Positions 3,437-15,585 of a stretch of 25,849 bases of DNA are shown here, piece after piece. Where the stretch lies: positions 1-25,849 of the forward strand of contig JAKRSE010000138.1 of assembly GCA_022402505.1 (NCBI GenBank). The letters are read 5' to 3'. Every line of letters starts with the position of its first letter. Position 1 is the stretch's first letter. Made by a program: the position numbers and the translations under genes. Source of the stretch: Fimbriimonadaceae bacterium. GTDB taxonomy: Bacteria; Armatimonadota; Fimbriimonadia; Fimbriimonadales; Fimbriimonadaceae. A model generated the notes under the pieces. It was not told the DNA's origin, made no database searches, and saw only the letters and a list, made by a program, of their open reading frames with translations.

Positions 3437-3967
3437 TCAGGCCAGAGGCCAGGTCTGAACCGTGACCGACTCCATCACCGCCGGATTCTCATCCAGCGGG
3501 TTGTCGTTGCGGTCCCGCTTCAGGGCGACGATCTTGTCGACGACATCCAGGCCGTCGATGACCCGACCGAAGACGGTGTACTGGCGGTCCAGATGCGGCA
3601 CCCGGTCCACGCAGACGAAGAACTGGCTGCCGGCCGAGTTCGGATCGCTGGTCCGAGCCATGCTCAGAATCCCCTTGGTGTGGGGAATCTCGTTGAACTC
3701 GGCCGGCACCGTATAGCCCGGGCCGCCCGTGCCGTGCAGGTGTCGAGGCTTGTCCTTGGTGTTCGGGTCGCCGCCCTGGATCACGAAGCCGGGGATGATC
3801 CGGTGGAACTTCACGCCGTTGTAGAAGCCGTCGCTGCTCAGCTTCTTGAAGCTCTCGACGTGCTTCGGAGCGACCTCGGGGAAGAACTGAAAGACCATGC
3901 GGCCGAGGTTGGTCTCCACGACCACGACCTCTTCGCCCGCCACCGCATCCTTCGGGACGAAGCTCAC
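3437..3967 (-). CDS. Cyclophilin-type peptidyl-prolyl cis-trans isomerase, cytoplasmic (176 aa)
   Basis: FHRIIPGFVIQGGDP, GILSMAR, SAGSQFF, LDRQYTVFGRV. GTG start at 3967 overlaps the upstream TGA (GTGA), with AGGAGG upstream. Confidence 0.92.
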   Translation of the reverse strand: MSFVPKDAVAGEEVVVVETNLGRMVFQFFPEVAPKHVESFKKLSSDGFYNGVKFHRIIPGFVIQGGDPNTKDKPRHLHGTGGPGYTVPAEFNEIPHTKGILSMARTSDPNSAGSQFFVCVDRVPHLDRQYTVFGRVIDGLDVVDKIVALKRDRNDNPLDENPAVMESVTVQTWPLA

Positions 3968-4707
3968 TGAGCCTCCTCCTTCGGTGCGGCCGGACCGTCG
4001 GCCTTCACCCCGTCGACCGGCCACTTGTCCATCCGGATCGACTTGACCACGACCGCGTTGGCCGGCTCGACCGAACCGTTGTTGTTCACGTCGCCCGTCT
4101 TCACAATCTGGTCGATCACGGTCATTCCGGCCACGGTCTCACCGAAGGCCGAATACTGCCCGTTCAGGCCCTCGTTGTCGGCCTGCATGATGAAGAACTG
4201 GCTGCTGGCCGAGTTCGGATCGTTGCTGCGGGCCATGCTCAGGACGCCGCGCTTGTGGCTCAGGTCGCTGGGCTCCAGGGCGACCATCCGCTCCCGGCCT
4301 CCCTCCATGAATCCGCCGGTGCCCCACTCGGCCGCTCGACTCATCTCCTTGGAGTTCGGGTCGCCGCCCTGGATCATGAAGCCCAGGATGCAGCGGTGGA
4401 ACCGAGTGCCGTCATAGAACTTGCGGCCGACCAGGTCCTTGAAGTTTTCGACATGCTTCGGCGCCTTGTCCGGGCGGAACCGAACCACGATCTTGCCCTT
4501 GTCGGTGTCGATGACCGCCACTTCCTCGCCGGGCTGAACCGTGGCCGAGACTTCGGCGGCCGGCTCCGGCTTGGGGGTCACCGCCGCTTCGGTTTCGGCT
4601 TCGGGAGTCGGGGCAGGCTCGGTCGGAGCGGGCTCGGACGGGGCGCAGCCCCAGGCCAGGCTGAACGCCGCCACGGCCAACGTCGGGATCCAGAACGGAA
4701 CCTTCAT
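3964..4707 (-). CDS. Cyclophilin-type PPIase, probable lipoprotein with Pro/Ala/Glu-rich linker (247 aa)
   Basis: Start MKVPFWIPTLAVAAFSLAWG|C gives a plausible, slightly non-canonical lipobox. Motifs FHRCILGFMIQGGDP, GVLSMAR, SASSQFF, LNGQYSAFGE. Confidence 0.9.
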   Translation of the reverse strand: MKVPFWIPTLAVAAFSLAWGCAPSEPAPTEPAPTPEAETEAAVTPKPEPAAEVSATVQPGEEVAVIDTDKGKIVVRFRPDKAPKHVENFKDLVGRKFYDGTRFHRCILGFMIQGGDPNSKEMSRAAEWGTGGFMEGGRERMVALEPSDLSHKRGVLSMARSNDPNSASSQFFIMQADNEGLNGQYSAFGETVAGMTVIDQIVKTGDVNNNGSVEPANAVVVKSIRMDKWPVDGVKADGPAAPKEEAQ

Positions 4708-4714
4708 AGGTTTG

Positions 4715-4720
4715 ATGGTA
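4715..4720 (-). promoter_or_regulatory. -10 element TACCAT of a probable leaderless promoter
   Basis: Minus strand reads TACCAT-caaacct-ATG(4707), with no SD sequence. Confidence 0.4.
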
Positions 4721-4867
4721 CCGGCGCAGCGAAAACCGCCTCCGGGAGGGACCGCCGGTCGAAAAACCTCAAGCGACACTCCAGAGATCGGGTCTGCCGC
4801 CCGAACATCTGATGTGGAGCCGTTCCGGGCCCGGCATATCTGCCGGCTGCCCCTGAGGACGGATGGC

Positions 4868-6100
4868 ATGGCAGCGATGTGGGAACTGGGTGCAGCGGCA
4901 GGAGCCGGATTGGCAGCGGGCATGGTCGGCATGCGCCTCCTCGCCGGGCGATCCAGGAGGAAGGGGCCCGCCCTCTCCGAGAGCGCCCTGGCCGCCGCCT
5001 GTGAACGCATGAGCGAGACGGGAGGAGATGACGACTCGCTCGCCCAGGCCGTCGCCTCAGCCGCCCGACTGGTCGGCGCCGAAGCCGCCGGACTCTACCT
5101 GACCGAAGGCGAAGGCATCCTCTTCATCTGCGCCGCCACCTGGACGAGCCGCGATTCCGTCGCCTTTCCCCGCCTCGTCACCATGGGACAGGGCCTGATC
5201 GGTCACGCCGTGGAACTGGGTCAGGAGATTCGAGCCTCGCGCAACGGCGAGGACCCCGGCGCCCTGATCGAGCTGGACTCCAGAACCCAAGCGGTCGTCG
5301 TTCTTCCCCTCTCCACCGCCCACCACCCCGCCGGAGGCACCCAGAGGGTCAACCGGGTTGTCGGCGCCCTCGTTCTCAGCCACTTTTCCGACGTCAAGGC
5401 TCTGGCCGGAGCCGGACTGGAACCCGCCCGAGCCGCCGCCTCCGTGCTCGCAATGGCCATCGGCTACCGAATGCTCGAGCAGTTCCAGCAGGAGACGCTG
5501 GTCCAGGCGATGCAGGCCGTTTCGCACCACCTGGAAGAGAAGGATCCCTATGTGGCCGGGCATTCGCACCGGGCGGGAGCGCTGGCCCTGCTCATCGGTC
5601 GCCGACTCCAGCTCGACCGCACCTCCCTCGATCACCTGCGCCTGGGGATGGCCCTGCACGACATCGGCAAGGTCGCCGTCTCCGACGAGATCCTGCACAA
5701 GACCACGAAGCTGACCGACGAAGAGTTCCGACAGATCGCCCGGCACACTGAGGTCGGGTTCGAAATCTGCCGGCCGCTCCGACTCCCGCCCGAAGTCCTT
5801 TCGATCATCCGCAGCCACCACGAACGGCTGGATGGTTCGGGCTACCCGGACGGACTCCGCGCCGACGAGATGCCGCTGATCCTCCGCATCGCCGGAGTCA
5901 GCATCGCCTACGACGCCATGAAGTCCAAGCGGCCGTGGCGACCCGCCCTCACGGCAGCCGAAACCCTGACCGAACTCGCCAAGGTCGCCGGCCGCCATGT
6001 GGACCCGACGGTCGTCCAGGCCCTCCAGTCCGTGGTCACGGAAGGCGACTACTTCGACATCTATCCTGAAGACCGACCGGAACGACTGGGGGCCGCATGA
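4868..6100 (+). CDS. N-terminal hydrophobic segment + GAF + HD-GYP domain protein with a non-canonical active site
   Basis: EEKDPYVAGHS, LHDIGK, RH..VG and HHERLDGSGYPDGL are present. The conserved 'VAD.(F/Y)DAM' reads VSIAYDAM. GAGGA lies upstream of ATG 4868 (alternative start 4877). Confidence 0.85.
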   Translation: MAAMWELGAAAGAGLAAGMVGMRLLAGRSRRKGPALSESALAAACERMSETGGDDDSLAQAVASAARLVGAEAAGLYLTEGEGILFICAATWTSRDSVAFPRLVTMGQGLIGHAVELGQEIRASRNGEDPGALIELDSRTQAVVVLPLSTAHHPAGGTQRVNRVVGALVLSHFSDVKALAGAGLEPARAAASVLAMAIGYRMLEQFQQETLVQAMQAVSHHLEEKDPYVAGHSHRAGALALLIGRRLQLDRTSLDHLRLGMALHDIGKVAVSDEILHKTTKLTDEEFRQIARHTEVGFEICRPLRLPPEVLSIIRSHHERLDGSGYPDGLRADEMPLILRIAGVSIAYDAMKSKRPWRPALTAAETLTELAKVAGRHVDPTVVQALQSVVTEGDYFDIYPEDRPERLGAA

Positions 6101-7182
6101 GCCCGGCGCTCGGAGTGGACCTGGGACGCGGCGAAATCAAGGTCGCCGCCCTCGCCCGGACCCATCGCAAGATCCGGGTCGTGGGCGTCGCCGTGCTGCC
6201 CGCCAAGCCGGACGATCCTCGATCGGCGGCGCGAAGCCTGCAGAAGCTCTGCCAGGCCCGAGGCTGGTCCGGAGCTCCCTGCGCCTTCGGAGTCGATCTC
6301 GACGAGACGACCCTGAAATGGACTCAGATGCCGCCCGTCGCCCCGGAAGACCGTCTCGGCGCGGCCGGGTCGATCATCCGCCGGGATCTCAACTCGCCGC
6401 TGGAAGAGACGTTCCTCGCCCTCCATTCCGGAGCGGACGACGAATCGCTGATCACCGCCGTTCATCGGGACTCGCTCGACCGCCGAGCCAACCTTCTGCT
6501 CGGGATCGGGCTCCAGCCGGTCCACGCCGAATTCGAAGGCCTCTCGATCCACCGCCTGGTTCAAAAGGCGCGGGCCGGGATGGTCGGAGGGGCCAGCACC
6601 ACCGTCGTCGATCTGGGCCGACGATCCACCCGGATGTACATTCTCCAGGGGAACCGCTTCCGGTTCTCCCGCACCATCGCCTTCGGGGCCGACGGACTGA
6701 TCCAGCGGCTTGTGAACGACCTGGACATCGGCCCGGATGAGGCGGTCGAGCTGCTTCACGACCCGGATTCCTACCTCACGATTCAGGGCTCGCTCCATCT
6801 GCCGTTTCGGAACAGCCATGCGGTCGTTTCGGTGGTCGAAGAGCTCCGGCTCCTGGCCCGCGAGTTCAGCCGGCTCATCAAGTACTTCCGATCGATCCAC
6901 CCCAGCCGCAGCTTCGGAGGACTGCTGGACGCCTTCCAGCTCACCGGCGGCCTGGCCGGCCTGATCGGACTCAGCGACTTCATCGGCCAAGAGGTCGGGA
7001 TGGCGGTTCAGTCGTTGAACCCCTTCGCCGGACTCGCCATGGACCTTCCCGCCGACGAACTCCGATCGGCCCTCATCTCTCCGAACCGGTTCGCCGCCGC
7101 CGTGGGCCTCGCCCTGGCGCTCGAACCGGATTTCGCCGCCCCTGCCCGAGAGGTCGGACATGTCTGGACCCGCGACGCTTGA
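6097..7182 (+). CDS. pilM: PilM-like actin-fold assembly protein
   Basis: LGVDLG..EIK, VVDLGRRST and LTGG actin-like motifs; FRFSRTIAFGADGL..RL. ATGA overlap with the HD-GYP gene. Confidence 0.8.
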   Translation: MSPALGVDLGRGEIKVAALARTHRKIRVVGVAVLPAKPDDPRSAARSLQKLCQARGWSGAPCAFGVDLDETTLKWTQMPPVAPEDRLGAAGSIIRRDLNSPLEETFLALHSGADDESLITAVHRDSLDRRANLLLGIGLQPVHAEFEGLSIHRLVQKARAGMVGGASTTVVDLGRRSTRMYILQGNRFRFSRTIAFGADGLIQRLVNDLDIGPDEAVELLHDPDSYLTIQGSLHLPFRNSHAVVSVVEELRLLAREFSRLIKYFRSIHPSRSFGGLLDAFQLTGGLAGLIGLSDFIGQEVGMAVQSLNPFAGLAMDLPADELRSALISPNRFAAAVGLALALEPDFAAPAREVGHVWTRDA

Positions 7183-7756
7183 AGCCGAATCCACCCGCCG
7201 CCAAGGCAACCTGCTGGACGCCTGGATCCGCGAGAAGCGCGATCTTCTGGCCCGCTCGCGCCGGATCAACGCCGCCATCATCGGCGCGTCCCTGGTCCTC
7301 ATCGGCAGCCTGGGCTGGTTCCCCGCACGGATCTTTTCGCTGATGAGCGCCGACGCCCTCAACCAGCGCCGGATCGAGGAAATGGGGCAGAGCTCCAGCC
7401 AGGTCCAGGCCCTGGACGTCCAGCTGGCGCAGGCCCGCGGCTACCGCGACCTCACCGCCGGCCTCGACAAGACCCACCGCAGCCTCTACGGCCGCCTGGT
7501 CACGGTGATGAACTCGGTGCGGCAGGGCACGGTGCTGATCACCTTGAACGCCGCCGCCGTGGACGGCCGACTGCAGCTCTCCGGCACCGCCGAAGTCGCC
7601 TCGTTCCAGTCCGGCCGAGACTTTCTGCAGAACGTCGAATCCGCCTTCGACTCCGGCCAGGTCCGAGCCGTCATGACCGGATCCAAACCATCGCCGGTTC
7701 TGGGGCCCCAGGGCCAGACCATCGACTTCCTGATCGTGGAGGAGACGCGACGGTGA
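7160..7756 (+). CDS. PilN-like bitopic membrane protein
   Basis: One N-terminal TM, a coiled-coil, then a ferredoxin-like segment (LQLSGTA...FLQNVES). Located directly after pilM. Confidence 0.65.
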   Translation: MSGPATLEAESTRRQGNLLDAWIREKRDLLARSRRINAAIIGASLVLIGSLGWFPARIFSLMSADALNQRRIEEMGQSSSQVQALDVQLAQARGYRDLTAGLDKTHRSLYGRLVTVMNSVRQGTVLITLNAAAVDGRLQLSGTAEVASFQSGRDFLQNVESAFDSGQVRAVMTGSKPSPVLGPQGQTIDFLIVEETRR

Positions 7757-8340
7757 TCGGAGGCCTCCCGGCAAGCGGGCAGATCCTGGCCCGACGCGCC
7801 GCCCTGGCACGAGGCCTGGCGATCGCCGCCGGCGTGCTCCTGGTCCTCGGCTTTGGCGCCGACCTGCTCCTCGCCGGGCGCGAAGGCAGATCGGCCCGAG
7901 AAGCCGACGAGCTCGAAGCGCAGATGAAGGCCCGGCGGACCGACCTCGCAGCCCTGGAAGAGCAGGCCCGAGACACGATGACCGGCCTCCAAGCCGTCAC
8001 CCGCATCCAGGAGTCTCTGGTCCAGCTGGGCCGCACGGTTGGAGTCTCCGTCACCTCATTCCAGAGCTCGCCCCAGCTCGCTCCCTTCCTATCCGGCTAC
8101 GGAACCCCCGCTCCCGGAGGATGGCTGATGGCCGGCGTCGAGATGGAGGCGGAGGGCAATGCCCTCGCCCTCGCCCGGTTCATCCGCTCCTTCCCGGAAA
8201 GCGGTCTCCGGTTCGAGGTCGCCGAAGTCCGGCTCACCCCGGGGCCGGCCGCGCCGGAAGGCAAGACCATGATCACCGCCGGCCTCAGACTCGTCGTGCT
8301 GACCCGAGACCCGGCTGCATCGACCGGAGGCCGTTCGTGA
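7753..8340 (+). CDS. PilO/GspM-like bitopic membrane protein
   Basis: One TM, a coiled-coil, then 'VEMEAEG..LALARFIRS'. ATGA overlap and position after pilN. Confidence 0.55.
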   Translation: MIGGLPASGQILARRAALARGLAIAAGVLLVLGFGADLLLAGREGRSAREADELEAQMKARRTDLAALEEQARDTMTGLQAVTRIQESLVQLGRTVGVSVTSFQSSPQLAPFLSGYGTPAPGGWLMAGVEMEAEGNALALARFIRSFPESGLRFEVAEVRLTPGPAAPEGKTMITAGLRLVVLTRDPAASTGGRS

Positions 8341-9011
8341 AGTTCGACGGCAAGACCATCGCCCTCCTGGCCCTGATGCCGGTGATGATGGCGGTCGCCC
8401 TGATGAACGTGCTGCCGATGCTGATGCGCAAGCCTGCGCCGCCGCGACCGCCAAGGCAGACGAGCGTGGACTACTCTGCCAAAGTCCTCAACCCCGACCT
8501 GGTCACCGACCCCTTCTACCATCCGGCCCTGGTTTCGGCCACGACGCCGACTCCCGGCCCCGGAGCCCTGCAGGCCCCTTCGACTCCGGTCATGCCCGCT
8601 CGGCCCTCCGCTCCGGCAGTGCTGCCTCCGCCGACGATGGCGGGCAGGATGGATCCGGGCATGGGCGACGCCGGACTGCAGCCTTGGACTCCCCCAAGCC
8701 CCGGAAGCCCATCGGCGCCCCTGCCTTCCGCCACCGGACCCCTGCCCCCCACGGGCCCGGCCCAGAGCTTCAGCCCATCCGAACCTCCCCTGCCGTCCAC
8801 GCCGCTCCTCGCCTTCACGGTGAAGGGGATCGTCTGGGGCGACCGGCCCTTCGCCTTCATCTCGGTGGAAGGCGGCCCCTCCGACCGCTTCTTCATCGGC
8901 GATTCACCCGCCGAAGGGGTGCTGGTCCAAGCGATTTCATCCACGAGCGTGACCCTGGTGCGCGGCAAGACGGCCAAGACCCTGGGTTCGGGAAAAAGTG
9001 ACACCCTATGA
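8337..9011 (+). CDS. GspC/PilP-like protein (TM anchor, Pro-rich linker, C-terminal beta domain; 224 aa)
   Basis: GTG start at 8337 overlaps the upstream TGA. C-terminal VKGIVWGDRPFAFI...FFIGD....GVLVQAIS.TSVTL resembles the HR/PilP domain. No lipobox Cys. Confidence 0.55.
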   Translation: MKFDGKTIALLALMPVMMAVALMNVLPMLMRKPAPPRPPRQTSVDYSAKVLNPDLVTDPFYHPALVSATTPTPGPGALQAPSTPVMPARPSAPAVLPPPTMAGRMDPGMGDAGLQPWTPPSPGSPSAPLPSATGPLPPTGPAQSFSPSEPPLPSTPLLAFTVKGIVWGDRPFAFISVEGGPSDRFFIGDSPAEGVLVQAISSTSVTLVRGKTAKTLGSGKSDTL

Positions 9012-10885
9012 TCCCTTCCTTCTTCGCCGTCGCAGCCGGCCTTGCTCAGCCTGAGCCGATCCTGCCGCCCGTCCATCCGATGCCGGTGCTTCGCCGACCG
9101 TCGGGTTCGGAGCTTCGACCTGTCGATCCCCTCTCGGACGCCGGATTCATCGTCCGCTCGGGAGCCGAAACGATTCCGGCCGGAGCCCAGGGGCGAAACG
9201 AGGCCTTCACGGCCGCCCTGGCGATGATCTTCGGACCCGCTCCGACGCCTCCGCCTGTCCCGGCGGCACCCGTCGCGGCGCCTCAGGCCCCCGAACCGGC
9301 TCGGACTCCCCCCGTCAGCCTGGCCGGCCCCGTGGATTCCCGGCGAGGGCGATCACAGGTGCTGCCGCCTGCGGCCAGGCCCGTTCCCCCGGCTCCTCGG
9401 GTGGAACCGCAGCCGGCCCCGGCCGCCCTGGCCGCCAATCTGACGACCGCCCCCTCCTCCCCGACCGGACCGCGAGGACAGGCGACCGATCCCGGCGACC
9501 CGATGATGCCGGAGATGGCGCCCGCCTCCGTCTCCACCCCGATCGCCCGGCCCGTGGATGTCAAGGCCCTGCCGATCAAGGCCTCGGGCACCGCCGCCTC
9601 CCTCAGCCTGGACGTGGTCGATCTGGAAGTGAGCCGGGTGCTTCAGGTCATCAGCGAACAGGCCAAGACGAACCTGATCCTGCTCAGCAACCCGCAGAAG
9701 ACGCTCACGATCCGGCTGCAGAACGTACCGCTGGACGAGGCCCTCACCCACGTGTGCGCCATCGCCGGACTCCGACGTCTGAAGATCGGCACCACCTACG
9801 TGATCGCCTCTCCCGAGGAGCTGTCCGCCGCCTATCCCGAGGAGTACCGAGCCGCCTATCCTTCGGCCGCCCCCGCCGTGCAGGGACCCGCCGTCCCCGA
9901 GGCGAGGGAGCTGATCGTCCTGCAGGTGAGCTTCACCAGCGCCCCGGCCCTGGCCAAGGTGCTCCAGGAAACCTTCCCCAAAGATGAGCTGACCGTGGTC
10001 GTCGGACCCGCCCAGCATGTGCCCCGCCTCTCGGACTCCAACACCGAGGACAAGACCGGCGTGCAGACCGGGCTCCTGACCGAGGAAACCGGCCAGGGCG
10101 GCTCGGGGAACGATGGCGGCGACCCGAACAGCCGGATCATCGTTCTCCAGGGAACCCCGTCCGTGCTGGAACGAGCCAAGATCGTGGCCCAGGCGATGGA
10201 CCGAGCCCGGCCGCAGATCAGCATCTCGGTCCGGATCATCGACGTGCAGAATGAGGCCCTCCGAGACCTCGGGGTCAGCTGGTCCTTCAGCGATTCCACC
10301 ATCAGGGAACAGGAAGGCGGCGGGTTCAACATCCGCAGCTTCGACCGCAGCCCGCAGACCTTCTCCGCCGCCCTCGCCGCCCTCCAGAGGAGCGACCGGG
10401 CCAAGATCCTGGCCGAACCGAACATCAGCGTCCTGGACAACCAGCGCGCCTTCATCCTGATCGGCCAGCGGCTCAACTTCCCGACTCTGATCGGCTACAC
10501 CCAGGCCAACACTCCGATCTTCAGCCCCAAGGAAGAGAAGGTCGGCATCTACCTGCAGGTGGCGGCTTCGGTCGCCCCGAACGGCGAGATCACCATGAGC
10601 CTCTACCCCCAGGTCAGCACCGTGACGGGCTTCCTGGAAGTGAGCGGCGGCAGCTACCCCCAGATCGCCACCCGCGAAGCCCAGACCACCGTCCGGGTCT
10701 CCAGCGGCGAGACGATCATGATCGGCGGCCTGATCCGCGATGATGAGATCAGGAACGTGCAGAAGGTGCCCTTCCTCGGAGACATTCCGATCCTGGGCGA
10801 GTTCTTCCGGAAGACGCGAACCCAGCGGACCTCCAGCCAGATCATCATCAGCATCACCCCGACCGTCACCCCGCCCCGCCCCTGA
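9008..10885 (+). CDS. Secretin (GspD/PilQ family) with a long Pro/Ala-rich N-terminus
   Basis: STN-like domain, N3-like domain, and secretin motifs AKILAEPNISVLDNQRAFILIG and VSSGETIMIGGLI....VQKVPFLGDIPILGEFFR. Confidence 0.92.
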   Translation: MIPSFFAVAAGLAQPEPILPPVHPMPVLRRPSGSELRPVDPLSDAGFIVRSGAETIPAGAQGRNEAFTAALAMIFGPAPTPPPVPAAPVAAPQAPEPARTPPVSLAGPVDSRRGRSQVLPPAARPVPPAPRVEPQPAPAALAANLTTAPSSPTGPRGQATDPGDPMMPEMAPASVSTPIARPVDVKALPIKASGTAASLSLDVVDLEVSRVLQVISEQAKTNLILLSNPQKTLTIRLQNVPLDEALTHVCAIAGLRRLKIGTTYVIASPEELSAAYPEEYRAAYPSAAPAVQGPAVPEARELIVLQVSFTSAPALAKVLQETFPKDELTVVVGPAQHVPRLSDSNTEDKTGVQTGLLTEETGQGGSGNDGGDPNSRIIVLQGTPSVLERAKIVAQAMDRARPQISISVRIIDVQNEALRDLGVSWSFSDSTIREQEGGGFNIRSFDRSPQTFSAALAALQRSDRAKILAEPNISVLDNQRAFILIGQRLNFPTLIGYTQANTPIFSPKEEKVGIYLQVAASVAPNGEITMSLYPQVSTVTGFLEVSGGSYPQIATREAQTTVRVSSGETIMIGGLIRDDEIRNVQKVPFLGDIPILGEFFRKTRTQRTSSQIIISITPTVTPPRP

Positions 10886-10900
10886 GAGGCACACCCACCC

Positions 10901-12613
10901 ATGCATGCCGAACGCAGCATCATCGACGTCCTGATCGAAGAGCAGCTCGTCACCCCGGAACAGGTGAACGAGCTGCTGGCCAACCGTCGCGACCTGACGG
11001 TGGAAGTGGATGAACTGGCCGTTCAGCAGGGGCTCATCTCGCAGGCGGACCGGTGCCGATGCCTGGGACTCGCCACCGGAATCCCCTTCCACGACCTTCG
11101 ACGCCTGCCCCCCAGCCCGGCGGCGGCCTCCTCGCTTTCGGCCCGACTCGCCAGCCGATTCGTCGCCGTTCCGGTGGACCTGACCGACTTCGCCGCCACC
11201 GTGGCGATGGCCAACCCCCTGGACCTGGAGGCGCTGGACGCCCTGCAGCACGCGCTGAACCGCGAGATCGACCCCATGTGGGCCGTCGCCGACGACATCA
11301 AGGAGGTCCTCGTCCGCACCCACGGCAAGCTGGACGAACTGGCAAACCTCATCGGCGAACTGGCGATCGGCGACCACGACATCGAACTCGCCACCGAGGT
11401 CGATGAGCCGGAAGGTCAAAACGCGGTGGACATGCGGCTCATCGCCGACGACGCCCCCGCGATCAAGCTCGCCAACGCCCTCATCAGCCGGTCGGTCAAG
11501 GTCGGCGCGAGCGACATCCACATCGAACCCGGCGAGAAATCGGTCCGGGTCCGGTTCCGCATCGACGGCCTGCTCCAGGAGGTCATGCAGGTGCCCAAGG
11601 ACCTCCAGCGGTCGCTCATCTCGCGGCTCAAAGTCATCGCCGGGCTCGACATCGCGGAACGCCGCGTGCCTCAGGACGGCCGAATCACCATGTACGTCCA
11701 GGAGGGCAGCTTCGACCTCCGCGTCGCCACCTACCCCTGCGCCTACGGCGAGAAGATGATCATCCGCGTGCTGAACAAGGCGGCCATCTCCATGCAGCTC
11801 ACCGAACTCGGCATCCCGCCGCAGTCGTTGATGAGCCTGATCCACGCCGCCGAGCAGACTCAGGGCCTGATCCTGGTCAACGGACCGACCGGCAGCGGAA
11901 AGACGACGACCCTCTACTCCGTCCTCAACCACCTGAACCGCGTCCATCGGCACATCATCACCATCGAAGACCCGATCGAATACCGGCTGGACGGCATCGT
12001 CCAGGGCAACGTCAACAACGCGGCCGGGCTCACCTTTGCCCGAGGGCTGCGGGCGATGCTCCGCGCCGACCCCGACGTGATCTTGGTCGGTGAAAGCCGC
12101 GACCCGGAAACCGCCGGCACCGCCATCGAAGCCGCCCTGACCGGCCACCTGGTGCTCACTTCGCTCCACGCCAACGACGCCGCCTCGGCCGTGGTCCGAC
12201 TCGGCGAAATGGGCGTCGAGCCCTTCCTCGTCGGTTCCGCCGTCACCTGCTCGGTCGCCCAGCGGCTGCTGCGGAGGGTCTGCCCGAACTGCCGCACGGA
12301 ATACATGCCCGACCACGCCGCCATGCTCCTGCTCGGCCTCGATCCGGGCGAAACCTTCCTCCACGGAGCCGGCTGCGACATGTGCAACGGCAGCGGCTAC
12401 CGCGGCCGCGTCGGGGTCTACGAGGTCATGACCGTGACGCCCAAGATCCGAAGACTGATCTATCAGAACGCCCCGGGCCATGAGATCACCCAGGTCGCCA
12501 AACGCGACGGGATGATCGGCATGAGGGAGGACGCCCTGAGCAAGGTCCGCGCCGGAATCACCACCGTCGAGGAAGTCCTCCGCGCCACCCCCGAAGACGA
12601 GGCCGCCGCATGA
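10901..12613 (+). CDS. GspE/PilB-family extension ATPase
   Basis: ASDIHIEP, PQDGR, Walker A GPTGSGKT, Asp box TIEDPIEY, Walker B DPDVILVGE, His box GHLVLTSLHAN, and tetracysteine CPNC...GCDMC. Confidence 0.95.
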   Translation: MHAERSIIDVLIEEQLVTPEQVNELLANRRDLTVEVDELAVQQGLISQADRCRCLGLATGIPFHDLRRLPPSPAAASSLSARLASRFVAVPVDLTDFAATVAMANPLDLEALDALQHALNREIDPMWAVADDIKEVLVRTHGKLDELANLIGELAIGDHDIELATEVDEPEGQNAVDMRLIADDAPAIKLANALISRSVKVGASDIHIEPGEKSVRVRFRIDGLLQEVMQVPKDLQRSLISRLKVIAGLDIAERRVPQDGRITMYVQEGSFDLRVATYPCAYGEKMIIRVLNKAAISMQLTELGIPPQSLMSLIHAAEQTQGLILVNGPTGSGKTTTLYSVLNHLNRVHRHIITIEDPIEYRLDGIVQGNVNNAAGLTFARGLRAMLRADPDVILVGESRDPETAGTAIEAALTGHLVLTSLHANDAASAVVRLGEMGVEPFLVGSAVTCSVAQRLLRRVCPNCRTEYMPDHAAMLLLGLDPGETFLHGAGCDMCNGSGYRGRVGVYEVMTVTPKIRRLIYQNAPGHEITQVAKRDGMIGMREDALSKVRAGITTVEEVLRATPEDEAAA

Positions 12614-13845
12614 GCGCATTCAAGTACAAGATCCTGACCGGCGACGGAGAGACGAAGACCGGGGAAGTTCAAGCGGGGGGGCTGGAAGAGGCCGAGCGCC
12701 GGCTGCAGCAGCAGGGCGCGACCGTCATCTCCCTGGTTCCCCTCTTTGAGAAGAAGGCCAAGGAGGCGGCGGGCGCCAAGCCGCTCACCCAGGTCCGCGT
12801 GGGGAAGGCCAAGGCAAAGCCCGCCGAGCTCGCCACCGTCCTGAGAAACCTGGCCGTCCTCGCCGAATCCGGCGTCCCCTTCTATGAATCGCTGAACGCG
12901 GTGCAGGAAGGAGCCGAGTCTCCCGCCCTCCGCGAGGGCCTGGAAAAGGTCAAGAGCCAGGTGATGGCGGGCCGGACCCTCGGCCAATCCCTTCGCTCGG
13001 CCCCGGAGCTCTTCACCCCCATGGTCTGCGACATGGTGGCCACCGGCGAAGAGAGCGGCCGACTGGACAAGGCCCTGACCGGAGCCGCAGCCTACATGGA
13101 CCGGGCCGTCGCCCTCCGGGCCAAGCTCGTCAACGCCCTCATCTATCCCTCCATCCTGCTCGGAGTCGCCGGCCTCACCGTCTCGGCGCTGGTTTTCTTC
13201 ATCATGCCGCGTTTCGCCGAAACGTTCAAGGGCATGAACATCAAGCCGCCGGCCGTCACCCAGGCGCTCATGGATTTCGGCACCACCGCCTCCACCAAGC
13301 CCTGGCTCTTCATCGTGGTGCCGCTCGCGGTCGTCTTCCTGATCAAGTTCATCGCCGCCAAGCCGGTGCTCCGAGACTTCTTCCTTCGGCTCTCCCGCCG
13401 GATTCCGGTCCTCGGGCCCGTGCTGCGACAGCTGAGTCTCGCGAGGATGCTCAGCACCCTGAGCAGCCTGCTGGGAAGCGGAGTCAACCTCCTGCCGGCC
13501 CTGGAGAGCGCGGGCAAGGTCTCCGGCGATCCCGACATCGAAGCCGCCTGCGAGGCCGCCCACCAGGACGTTCACGGCGGCGGAATGCTGAGCGAATCCT
13601 TCAAGCGGACCCGAGTCCTGCCCCCGACGCTGGTCCAGATGGTCGCCGTCGGCGAGCGGAGCGGAAGGCTGAGCACCCTGGTGGAACGGGCCAGCGAGGA
13701 GATGGAGGTTCAGGCCGACGCCCGGCTCAAATCGCTCATGGCGATCTTCGAGCCGATCATGATCCTCGTGATGGGCGGCGTCATCGGCCTGATCACCTTC
13801 TCCCTGATCTCGCCGCTCTTCTCGGTGCTGCAGAACGTGAGGTGA
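12610..13845 (+). CDS. GspF/PilC inner-membrane platform protein
   Basis: Two T2SSF repeats (ATGEESGRLD; AVGERSGRL), YPSILL and EPIMILVMGG.IG. Confidence 0.95.
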   Translation: MSAFKYKILTGDGETKTGEVQAGGLEEAERRLQQQGATVISLVPLFEKKAKEAAGAKPLTQVRVGKAKAKPAELATVLRNLAVLAESGVPFYESLNAVQEGAESPALREGLEKVKSQVMAGRTLGQSLRSAPELFTPMVCDMVATGEESGRLDKALTGAAAYMDRAVALRAKLVNALIYPSILLGVAGLTVSALVFFIMPRFAETFKGMNIKPPAVTQALMDFGTTASTKPWLFIVVPLAVVFLIKFIAAKPVLRDFFLRLSRRIPVLGPVLRQLSLARMLSTLSSLLGSGVNLLPALESAGKVSGDPDIEAACEAAHQDVHGGGMLSESFKRTRVLPPTLVQMVAVGERSGRLSTLVERASEEMEVQADARLKSLMAIFEPIMILVMGGVIGLITFSLISPLFSVLQNVR

Positions 13846-14267
13846 TCTTGAGGCGGCGCGGATACAGTCTGCTGGAGGTTCTCATGGGAGTCTCGGTTCT
13901 GGCCATCCTGCTTGGACTGACCATGCCCGCGCTCCGGGGCATCTCGGCCAACTCTCAGGAGTCGGAGCTGAAGCGGCGACTGCTCCTGGTGCGGCAGGCA
14001 TCGGGGCGGGCCTCGGCCGACATCGGCTGCTTCATCGGTCAGCTCTCCGATCTGACCCTTTCCGCCTCGCCGGGAACCTGCTTCAATGAGAACGGCGATC
14101 CGGTCTCGATTCCGGTCGGCTCTTGGCGCGGGCCCTACCTCGCCTCTCTCCCCATCGACCCGGTCAGCCGAGCGCCCTTCACCTACCAGACCGGCAGCGG
14201 CATGGGCCGTGTCGCCAGTTCCGCCTCCGGCAACGACAGCAAAGGGGTGCCTTTTGCGGGCTACTAG
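13842..14267 (+). CDS. GspG-like prepilin 1 (class III signal G|YSLLE)
   Basis: GTG start overlaps the gspF stop. RRRG|Y with E5, hydrophobic helix, WRGPYL..LP.DPVS. Confidence 0.85.
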   Translation: MILRRRGYSLLEVLMGVSVLAILLGLTMPALRGISANSQESELKRRLLLVRQASGRASADIGCFIGQLSDLTLSASPGTCFNENGDPVSIPVGSWRGPYLASLPIDPVSRAPFTYQTGSGMGRVASSASGNDSKGVPFAGY

Positions 14268-14670
14268 ACGAGGCTTCAGCCTGCTGGAGCTGATGATCGT
14301 TTTGGCGATGGTCGCCACGCTCGCCGCCATCGCCGCCCCCAACCTCATCCTCCAATCGCGGAGAGGCAAGGAGGCCGAGCTCGGCCGACGGCTGCAGCTG
14401 GTTCGGGCGGCCCTGAACGCCTTCCACTCCGACCTCGGCTGCCATCCGACCGCCCTCGCCCAGCTGGAGGCGGTCACCGTGACCCAGTGCCTGGCCCCCA
14501 ACCAGGCGACCATCACCCCGCCCGGAATCGTGCGCGGCCCCTATCTTCCCAAAGTCCCGCTCGATCCGGTCTCCGGCGCTGCGTTCACCTATTCCCCTGC
14601 CTCCGGATTCACGGTCGGCTCATCCGCGACAGGCACCGATCTTGCCGGACGCGCCTACTCCACCTACTGA
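14254..14670 (+). CDS. GspG-like prepilin 2 (class III signal G|FSLLE; 138 aa)
   Basis: Start re-assigned to TTG at 14254 (MRATRRG|FSLLE), preceded by AAAGGGG and overlapping pilin 1. RGPYLPKVPLDPVS. Confidence 0.85.
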   Translation: MRATRRGFSLLELMIVLAMVATLAAIAAPNLILQSRRGKEAELGRRLQLVRAALNAFHSDLGCHPTALAQLEAVTVTQCLAPNQATITPPGIVRGPYLPKVPLDPVSGAAFTYSPASGFTVGSSATGTDLAGRAYSTY

Positions 14671-14703
14671 AGAAGCGGCCCGCCCTGCCGATGATCTAGG
14701 GTG

Positions 14704-15117
14704 ATGAGACGTCGCGGCTTCACCCTGGTGGAACTGATGGTGGCCGTCGCCATCATGGGAATGGTGATGGCGATCGCCGTGCCCAACCTGCAGCTGGCCG
14801 GTCGGCGTGCGCGGGAGTCGGCGCTGCGGAACGATCTTGCCGTCGTCCGGGCCGCCATCCAGATGTTCCGGACCGACGTGGGCTGTCATCCCACCCAGCT
14901 CGCCCACCTTTCGGGGCTCGCGGCTCCGGCGACCTGCACCACGGTCGGCGGGGGCTCGACTCCGGTGATCGCCTCCCGCTATCGCGGTCCCTACCTCCCG
15001 GCAACCCCGGTCGATCCGGTCAGCCGGACCGCCTTCGGCTACACCGCCGCCACCGGAGTCGTGCTCAGCTCGGCCGCCGGCAACGACATCAACGGCAGCC
15101 CCTATTCCGGCTACTGA
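14704..15117 (+). CDS. GspG-like prepilin 3 (class III signal G|FTLVE)
   Basis: MRRRG|FTLVELM and YRGPYLPATPVDPVS. An alternative GTG start lies at 14701. Confidence 0.9.
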   Translation: MRRRGFTLVELMVAVAIMGMVMAIAVPNLQLAGRRARESALRNDLAVVRAAIQMFRTDVGCHPTQLAHLSGLAAPATCTTVGGGSTPVIASRYRGPYLPATPVDPVSRTAFGYTAATGVVLSSAAGNDINGSPYSGY

Positions 15118-15129
15118 TCCCAGAAGGGC

Positions 15130-15585
15130 TCAAGGGCAGGCGACGCACCGGTCGGCCACCGCCTCCAGGTGCATGTGGACGTCCTGAAACCCCTGGTCGA
15201 TCGCCCGGCGAAGGGTCTCCTCCAGAACGCCCTCCGGGAGGGCGACCTCCTGCACCCGGCCGCAGTTCCGGCAGACGATGTGATGGGTGTTCTCCCCGTG
15301 GCTGTGCTCCAGCCGACAGGCCAGGTAGCCGTCCACCGAAGCGAGATGGTGGACCAGGCCGAGCCGGACAAAGACGCTCAGAACCCGGTACACGCTCACC
15401 GCATCCATCCGACCGCCGGACTCCAGCACCCGGGTGTGGATCTCGTTCGGGCTCAAGGCCACCTCGCTGGCCATCAGCACCTTGACCACCTCCAGCCGAG
15501 GGCCGGTGATTCTCATCTCCGCATCGCGCAGAGCCTGAATGGCGCGATCGCGGAAGGTGGCGGGTACGGGTGCGCCCGGTGACAT
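15130..15585 (-). CDS. Fur-family metalloregulator (Zur-like)
   Basis: RITGPR..V, 'AVSVYRVL..F...GLVH', His-rich HSHGENTHHIVCRNCGRVQE, and a C-terminal CVAC. Confidence 0.9.
   Translation of the reverse strand: MSPGAPVPATFRDRAIQALRDAEMRITGPRLEVVKVLMASEVALSPNEIHTRVLESGGRMDAVSVYRVLSVFVRLGLVHHLASVDGYLACRLEHSHGENTHHIVCRNCGRVQEVALPEGVLEETLRRAIDQGFQDVHMHLEAVADRCVACP

Follow-up and report, generated by a model that had tools for sequence, protein, structure and literature searches.

A compact type IV filament operon with GspG-like pilins, conserved in Armatimonadota

The locus described here is an operon of 11 forward-strand genes in a 25,849-nucleotide (nt) stretch of DNA from a Fimbriimonadaceae bacterium of the phylum Armatimonadota (GCA_022402505.1, JAKRSE010000138.1). 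This stretch, hereafter the window, is contig C43 of the metagenome-assembled genome (MAG) G000, which comprises 2.32 Mb and is 73% complete. RuvB of this genome finds its best matches, at 66–68% identity, in MAGs labelled Fimbriimonas, Fimbriimonadaceae and Chthonomonas, so that the host is an Armatimonadota of the Fimbriimonadia type; a search for expression data on the stretch returned DNA metagenome runs only, and its probable source sample bears the label freshwater metagenome. The genes run from position 4868 to 15117, mostly overlapping, with the coordinates given by a first-pass annotation made from the sequence alone, and they encode in order a GAF/HD-GYP protein, PilM, PilN, PilO, a membrane-anchored protein of the GspC/PilP fold, a secretin, an assembly ATPase, a platform protein and three GspG-like pilins. 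Every structural component of a type IV filament machine of diderms is there and is conserved; the genes are listed below with the matches that identify them.

4868..6100, + strand: GAF and HD-GYP (HD_5) protein of the cyclic di-GMP (c-di-GMP) phosphodiesterase type, first gene of the operon (Pfam HD_5 5e-32, HD 3e-16, GAF 1e-4)
6097..7182, + strand: PilM, actin-like cytoplasmic alignment protein (Pfam PilM_2 4.6e-15; TIGR01175 85 bits, cut-off 133)
7160..7756, + strand: PilN, bitopic (invariant NLL motif; Pfam PilN in 5 of 12 orthologues)
7753..8340, + strand: bitopic protein of the PilO/GspM family (AlphaFold 2 fold, Foldseek and profile match in the PDB)
8337..9011, + strand: transmembrane-anchored, Pro-rich protein with a C-terminal homology region (HR) domain of the GspC/PilP fold, without a lipobox or PDZ domain (profile, Pfam and fold)
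9008..10885, + strand: secretin (Pfam Secretin 8e-44, Secretin_N 7.5e-6)
10901..12613, + strand: PilB-type assembly ATPase with N-terminal MshEN domain (T2SSE 4e-127, MshEN 2e-14)
12610..13845, + strand: inner-membrane platform protein of the PilC/GspF family (two T2SSF domains, 2e-52)
13842..14267, + strand: pilin 1, GspG-like, Tyr at +1 (N_methyl 1.4e-4; TIGR01710 30 bits; in alignment A4)
14254..14670, + strand: pilin 2, GspG-like (N_methyl 4.9e-6; in alignment A4)
14701..15117, + strand: pilin 3, GspG-like (N_methyl 5e-10; T2SSG 22.6 bits, cut-off 21; TIGR01710 57 bits)

Most of the frames are joined by overlaps of 4 nt (6097–6100, 7753–7756, 8337–8340, 9008–9011, 12610–12613 and 13842–13845), with longer overlaps between the PilM and PilN genes (23 nt, 7160–7182) and between those of pilins 1 and 2 (14 nt, 14254–14267), and with gaps of 15 nt from secretin to ATPase (10886–10900) and of 30 nt from pilin 2 to pilin 3 (14671–14700). 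The gene for the GspC-like protein starts at GTG 8337, and the start of pilin 2 was reassigned to TTG 14254, which has the Shine–Dalgarno sequence AAGGGG upstream. A scan for consensus promoters and terminators found nothing informative. As the first-pass annotation had stated, the cluster holds no PilT, no GspH–K or minor pilins, no GspL fusion and no prepilin peptidase; its parts list of PilM, PilN and PilO, a transmembrane-anchored GspC-like protein in place of the PilP lipoprotein and GspG-like pilins is likewise borne out by profiles and folds, as set out below.

Three genes lacking a Pfam match, those for PilN, PilO and the GspC-like protein, were examined through alignments of their orthologues. 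In PilN, residues N17-L18-L19 near the N terminus are invariant in 12 orthologues, and the best of the Pfam matches among these has an E value of 2.9e-6; a profile search of the PDB with PilN gave coiled-coil noise only. The NLL motif of PilN is the PilM-binding site in studied systems. The AlphaFold 2 model of PilO (predicted local distance difference test score, pLDDT, 85) has a ferredoxin-like domain in addition to a transmembrane helix and a long coiled coil, and Foldseek places PilO of Myxococcus xanthus and of Pseudomonas aeruginosa at the top of its matches (3JC8_Oa at 9e-6, 2RJZ and 5UVR), which also include Amuc_1100 and PulM; the PDB profile match of this gene to PilO has an E value of 0.013. 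In the GspC-like protein a Pro-rich linker joins a transmembrane helix to a C-terminal beta domain, and there is neither a lipobox Cys nor a PDZ domain. Against PDB profiles the protein matches the HR domain of GspC (3OSS_C, E 0.0018), Pfam T2SSC is found in 7 of its 12 orthologues, and its C-terminal domain, modelled with pLDDT above 90, is closest in Foldseek to 3OSS_C (TM-score 0.80), then to GspB and then to PilP (2Y4Y, 0.60).

The secretin begins with a signal peptide and a variable Pro-rich stretch, followed by an N0-like domain (approximately residues 196–275, the conserved core beginning at residue ~196), one Secretin_N domain and the secretin domain itself. No AMIN match was found in the Pfam scan, and the NCBIfam scores are higher for the PilQ model (194 bits) than for that of GspD (171 bits), both under cut-off, with the MshL model TIGR02519 at 119 bits against a cut-off of 250; by its domain make-up, the protein reads as a PilQ core without AMIN domains. 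A complex prediction of the HR domain with the secretin N0 domain scored 0.38, against 0.00 for the best control, with at least 94% of contacts agreeing between runs and a partner pLDDT of at least 79. Of 80 solved complexes, 58 reached the same mark as this pair, as did 2 of 110 mismatched pairs, although scores of 0.60 or below, such as this one, belong to only seven of the 80 solved complexes and to both of the mismatches that passed. Docking of the HR domain on the N0 domain is therefore weakly supported by the model, and as the two are a textbook pair, the prediction may pass through likeness to 3OSS.

Of the remaining machinery, the ATPase scores 551 bits with the PilB model TIGR02538 (cut-off 676) and 546 bits with the GspE model TIGR02533 (cut-off 630), and the platform protein has as its best NCBIfam match GspF (TIGR02120, 315 bits, under the 424-bit cut-off). 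The GspG equivalog TIGR01710 matches pilins 1 and 3 at 30–57 bits, where the cut-off is 88.85, and Pfam T2SSG matches pilin 3 only, just over its cut-off. PulG (5WDA)/GspG is the only PDB sequence match that runs past the N-terminal helix into the globular domain of the pilins. A profile search found more than 2000 database relatives of the pilin family at E ≤ 1e-8, all the named ones being from Armatimonadota and usually annotated automatically as ‘GspG’ or ‘prepilin-type’; a single-sequence word search with pilin 3 returned only pilin 3 itself. Three pilins with a conserved Cys pair occur only in the genus of the window, that is in the window and in the genome G002 (alignment A4), and the Cys positions are Gly, Ala or Ser in other orthologues, which have one or two pilins without Cys.

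Conservation of the operon was assessed by tblastn of the 11 proteins on orthologous loci from 14 relatives. At least 12 of these, spread over several families, keep the gene order: HD-GYP and PilM come first, then small genes spanning about 2 kb, and then secretin, ATPase, platform and pilins. This synteny shows that the arrangement is not due to chance. The HD-GYP gene heads the operon in 12 of the 14 loci, and the number of pilins varies from one to three. Among 301 genomes sampled from the phylum, a search for the secretin found an orthologue (E ≤ 1e-55) in 32, which are concentrated in two families (13 of 31 and 12 of 15 genomes) and scattered in others. Within the genus, the operon is present in G002, and G001 gave only weak, paralogue-level matches to its secretin. 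Directly upstream of the HD-GYP gene, two to three genes (of approximately 170, 228 and 345 amino acids, aa) are kept in four to six loci (L117:1896–4121; L118, L119, L120, L126, L127); they match no Pfam family and include no obvious substrate. No account of this cassette turned up in literature searches. The original proposal of an uncharacterised type IV filament machine encoded by a single operon is upheld by the 11 genes and by synteny in at least 12 relatives, but it is not a one-off, since the cassette is kept across Armatimonadota families and its pilin family has over 2000 relatives. The operon is an uncharacterised variant of type IV filament machinery rather than a new category of system.

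Two database records met among these relatives carry doubtful labels. CALRMU020000001.1 (G002:C1; L011/L116) is titled ‘Synechococcus sp. UW140’, yet it is the same-genus relative with the syntenic operon, and the label looks wrong. JBGTAD010000182.1 (L012), only 1.5 kb long and assigned to a ‘Candidatus Absconditabacterales’ bin, carries a gene for this secretin (54% identity) and is probably a mis-binned Armatimonadota fragment.

The operon does not stand alone in these genomes. The window genome encodes six PilB/GspE-type ATPases, at least four PilT-type ATPases, one of whose genes adjoins another PilB, several platform proteins and a sole prepilin peptidase (PilD), on contig C247. G002, which is nearly complete, has four secretins and six assembly ATPases. 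These belong in part to a true type II secretion system (T2SS) locus, which comprises GspE-F-G-H-I-J together with a GspD containing N0 and three Secretin_N domains, and to a type IVa pilus (T4aP) with a PilB-PilT-PilC core and a PilM..PilQ cluster whose secretin has 901 aa; there is also one further PilM..secretin cluster. The ATPase, platform and PilT sets of G002 are found in the window genome too. Because G002 separately encodes a full T2SS and a full T4aP, the operon is a third, additional system rather than a fragment of one of the two. The first-pass annotation had allowed that missing components found elsewhere might complete a standard system; PilT and prepilin peptidase genes do lie elsewhere in the genome, but beside separate, complete T4aP and T2SS sets, and an incomplete T2SS or T4aP completed in trans was rejected on this ground. 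Denise et al. (2019) reported a T2SS in Armatimonadetes (PMC6668835), the genes of which are not named in their supplementary tables (PMC6668835); this is most simply the GspE-F-G-H-I-J locus rather than the 11-gene operon.

Several further ATPase genes came to light alongside these sets. Three PilT-type ATPase genes lie in a row at G000:C265:1108–4022, with the same triple at G002:C3:152755–155620, and in the 1303-aa protein encoded by L199 (G002:C1:742608–746519) a long N-terminal extension precedes the MshEN and T2SSE domains. The top matches of a representative search with the operon ATPase (P0001–P0011) are proteins of about 1000 aa with two tandem T2SSE ATPase modules, and a Calditrichota MAG (L213, G045:C552:1392–5388) has two full-length PilB/GspE-type ATPase genes in tandem, both near the GspE and PilB cut-offs.

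Phylogenetic placement was addressed with an IQ-TREE analysis of the ATPase (57 rows, with PilT as outgroup), a platform tree of 25 rows and a tree of the secretins. The operon ATPases form a clade of their own (support 100/98), sister (95/94) to a group made up of a paralogue from the same genomes and two metagenomic proteins, the contexts of which are PilM-N-O-X-secretin-ATPase-PilT and PilM-N-O-X-secretin-ATPase-platform-GGDEF. The next branch is the T4aP PilB of the lineage (91/89), with the GspE references and the lineage's T2SS ATPase placed elsewhere, and the operon ATPase does not group with the MshE-like protein of Aeromonas. In the secretin tree, the operon proteins group with PilQ-type secretins (92/91), apart from GspD and MshL. 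In the platform tree the PilC references and the PilC of the lineage (ArmC) form one clade, and the GspF references and the GspF of the lineage (ArmB) another, the operon platforms being in neither. The claim that the core proteins lie outside the canonical proteobacterial T2SS and T4aP clades accordingly agrees with the ATPase and platform trees.

The ATPase clade is also small and isolated, as a search of 1.84 billion representatives yielded only about five single-domain ATPases above 470 bits, followed by a plateau at 420–445 bits. Plasmid-borne relatives of the ATPase in Acaryochloris and Deinococcus are orphan genes with no machine around them. Three records filed as plasmids, NZ_AP026896.1 (Aeromonas caviae), NZ_CP104448.1 (Acinetobacter baumannii) and NZ_OL790696.1 (E. 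coli), are 4.1–4.9 Mb long and evidently whole chromosomes; the first of them has its PilB (TapB) gene broken into two pieces (473804–474574 and 475839–476750). A sister cassette (P0015; L299:3628–13183) comprises PilM, N, O, X, a secretin with an STN domain, the ATPase and the platform protein, and has after these, instead of an HD-GYP gene, one for a sigma-70/GGDEF fusion protein.

Set beside known systems, the operon shares several features with T4aP: it has PilM, PilN with the NLL motif, PilO, a connector of the HR/PilP fold and a secretin core of N0, N1 and secretin domains, its PilB-type ATPase carries MshEN, the ATPase and secretin branch on the T4aP side, and single-operon PilM-N-O-X-Q-B(-T) cassettes occur in other bacteria. 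It differs in having no PilT, minor pilins or PilY1 in cis, in a transmembrane-anchored connector that is nearer to GspC, where T4aP has the PilP lipoprotein, and in its GspG-like pilins, a platform outside the PilC clade and the lack of a detected AMIN domain; the connector fold and the side of the tree on which the secretin falls are nevertheless compatible with PilP and PilQ. With the mannose-sensitive haemagglutinin (MSHA) pilus it shares gene order, the backbone of the Aeromonas locus (MshH, I, I2, J, K, L, [M, N], E, G, [F] and pilins) being that of the operon, along with a c-di-GMP-type first gene, an MshEN domain on the ATPase and the absence of a retraction ATPase or prepilin peptidase from the locus. 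In contrast to the operon, Aeromonas has two genes between secretin and ATPase (taken as MshM/N), and no MshO/P/Q-like genes follow the operon pilins; phmmer found no similarity between the window PilM and the open reading frames at the MshI position of the Aeromonas locus. With its low MshL score, its lack of MshM/N or MshO/P/Q genes and an ATPase apart from the MshE-like protein, the operon does not belong to the MSH family.

The likeness to T2SS lies in the globular domain of the pilins, in a transmembrane-anchored protein with a GspC-type HR domain, in the lack of a retraction ATPase and in the gathering of all genes in one operon. Unlike a T2SS, it has no GspH–K, keeps PilM and PilN separate where T2SS has the GspL fusion, carries MshEN on its ATPase and has a secretin with an N0-like domain and one Secretin_N, where the GspD of the lineage has N0 and three Secretin_N domains; in the trees its ATPase, platform and secretin fall outside the GspE, GspF and GspD clades, within which the lineage's own T2SS is found. 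Of the parts compared, just two appear T2SS-like, namely the globular domain of the pilins and the HR domain of the GspC-like protein. The description ‘hybrid T4aP/T2SS’ in the first-pass annotation thus holds for these two elements but not for the ATPase and secretin, which are on the PilB/PilQ side, or for the platform, which is outside both. The ‘GspF-like’ label of the platform comes from hidden Markov model scores alone and is not a phylogenetic one, as the clade lies outside GspF. The pilins of Thermus thermophilus are reported to resemble T2SS pseudopilins in a pilus-type machine (PMC5131608), and the Xcm cluster of Pseudomonas putida, which the first-pass annotation had named as a possible parallel for the pilin triplet, is a second, T2SS-like cluster needed for export of Mn-oxidase (PMC13689576; PMC4509608). 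In five Pseudomonas genomes, none of P. putida, there was no triple-GspG cluster, and two weak GspG-like matches proved to be ordinary T4aP minor-pilin clusters.

On balance, we lean towards reading the operon as a complete, self-contained type IV filament machine, a T4aP-derived offshoot in Armatimonadota that is linked to c-di-GMP and would most likely build an attachment pilus without a PilT of its own, although we hold the specific function less firmly than the rest. The filament type, the gating and the function that we infer can be put together as follows. PilM, PilN and PilO would form an inner-membrane alignment complex in which PilM binds the NLL tail of PilN, and PilN and PilO, with the transmembrane-anchored HR protein, would bridge to a short, PilQ-type secretin at its N0 domain. 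One to three small pilins of the GspG fold, matured by the single PilD encoded elsewhere (C247), would be polymerised by the platform together with the MshEN-bearing ATPase, and the level of c-di-GMP, set in part by the operon's own HD-GYP protein, would gate assembly. The product would be a surface attachment pilus without its own retraction motor. A tie between assembly and c-di-GMP is suggested by the HD-GYP gene at the head of the operon, the catalytic motifs of which are complete in most orthologues, together with the MshEN domain of the ATPase, and it parallels the MSHA pilus.

A number of observations weigh against this reading. A secretion pseudopilus would be expected to include a GspG-type pilin and a GspC-like HR domain, as this operon does. 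The c-di-GMP parts are altered in the window genus, where a metal-ligand Asp of the HD-GYP protein is replaced by Ile (VSIAYDAM; window 5903–5905), a change seen otherwise in one other locus only, and where both MshEN motifs (window 10901–11090) are degenerate, being recognisable and largely kept in most orthologues; control by c-di-GMP may, on these substitutions, be altered or lost in this genus. The trees, too, have limits: the reference sets are small, consisting of a few Proteobacteria and one MSHA locus, with no type IVb pilus, Com, Bacteroidota or Chlamydiota systems, and the secretin tree has long branches, few starred nodes and moderate support. The approximately unbiased (AU) test does not reject a grouping of the ATPase clade with GspE (p 0.072), a constraint that costs 25.8 log-likelihood units, and the operon platforms make up a clade of their own (99/96), separate from those of PilC and GspF. 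The term ‘T4aP-derived’ would therefore draw on two of the three markers, ATPase and secretin, together with PilMNO.

Some of this would also suit a minimal second T2SS-like system, in which a short GspG-like pseudopilus pushes a folded substrate through the secretin and the HR protein gates it. Such a machine would account for a pilin globular domain that matches only PulG/GspG, an HR domain closest to GspC, the lack of PilT in cis, a platform whose best NCBIfam match is GspF, the naming of the pilins as GspG by public pipelines and the GspE affinity of the ATPase that the AU test leaves possible. We nonetheless consider it improbable, since no locus examined has the GspH–K tip pseudopilins, the secretin has N0 and one N domain in place of the N0–N3 vestibule of the lineage's GspD, PilM and PilN are not fused as GspL, the ATPase bears MshEN, and ATPase, platform and secretin are outside the GspE/F/D clades, with ArmB inside; nor does any conserved candidate substrate gene adjoin the operon. 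Less probable still is a competence pseudopilus machine for DNA uptake, akin to the PilMNOWQ/PilF translocator of Thermus with its pseudopilin-like pilins. The shared PilMNO-secretin-PilB backbone and the reported nature of the T. thermophilus pilins speak for it, and a quick ATPase tree joined a Deinococcaceae PilF-like ATPase and the T4aP PilB of the lineage, weakly (85% by the SH-like approximate likelihood ratio test); in the careful tree the Deinococcaceae ATPase lies at the base, without a settled branching. However, the flanks examined contain no comEA, comEC or dprA, occurrence of the operon is patchy even within the genus, G002 having it and G001 giving only weak paralogue matches to its secretin, and linkage to c-di-GMP is more typical of adhesion pili.

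The changes in the HD-GYP and MshEN motifs raise the further prospect that in the window genus the system is drifting towards loss or change of function. Long branches for the window and G002 in all three trees (ATPase, platform and secretin) would agree with this, as would the lack of a secretin orthologue in the sister species G001. Yet both genus members retain 11 intact reading frames and their translational coupling, and the pilin triplication with its gain of a Cys pair looks like innovation rather than decay, so that we judge drift, too, to be quite unlikely. It is possible, though we are doubtful, that the cassette represents a distinct and unnamed family of diderm type IV filaments, derived from T4aP as MSH and T2SS are and of equal rank with them. 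Such a family would have ATPase, platform and secretin clades of its own, would work with a single pseudopilin-like subunit, without a minor-pilin tip or a dedicated retraction motor, and has so far been found only in Armatimonadota. The type IV filament systems that Denise et al. leave unassigned as ‘generic’ run into the hundreds (PMC6668835), and the operon fits among these.

The surroundings of the operon in the window can be described briefly. A convergent gene of the Fur family (15130–15585) follows directly after pilin 3. On the other side, the 5′ end of a cyclophilin open reading frame (3964–5010, − strand) is over-extended into the operon; its lipoprotein-type signal, MKVPFWIPTLAVAAFSLAWGC, suggests a real start near 4704, which would leave a divergent intergenic region of approximately 160 nt ahead of the first gene.

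Armatimonadota are common in freshwater and soil and almost unstudied experimentally, and the genomes of this phylum that carry the cassette encode at least four filament machines each. The automatic names ‘GspG’ and ‘type II secretion’ in Armatimonadota are consequently not evidence of a T2SS. The cassette is compact, its nine to 11 genes including those for one to three pilins and for a c-di-GMP enzyme, and it would offer a convenient minimal model for asking how a filament is assembled without minor pilins and how pseudopilin-like subunits are used by pilus-type machinery.

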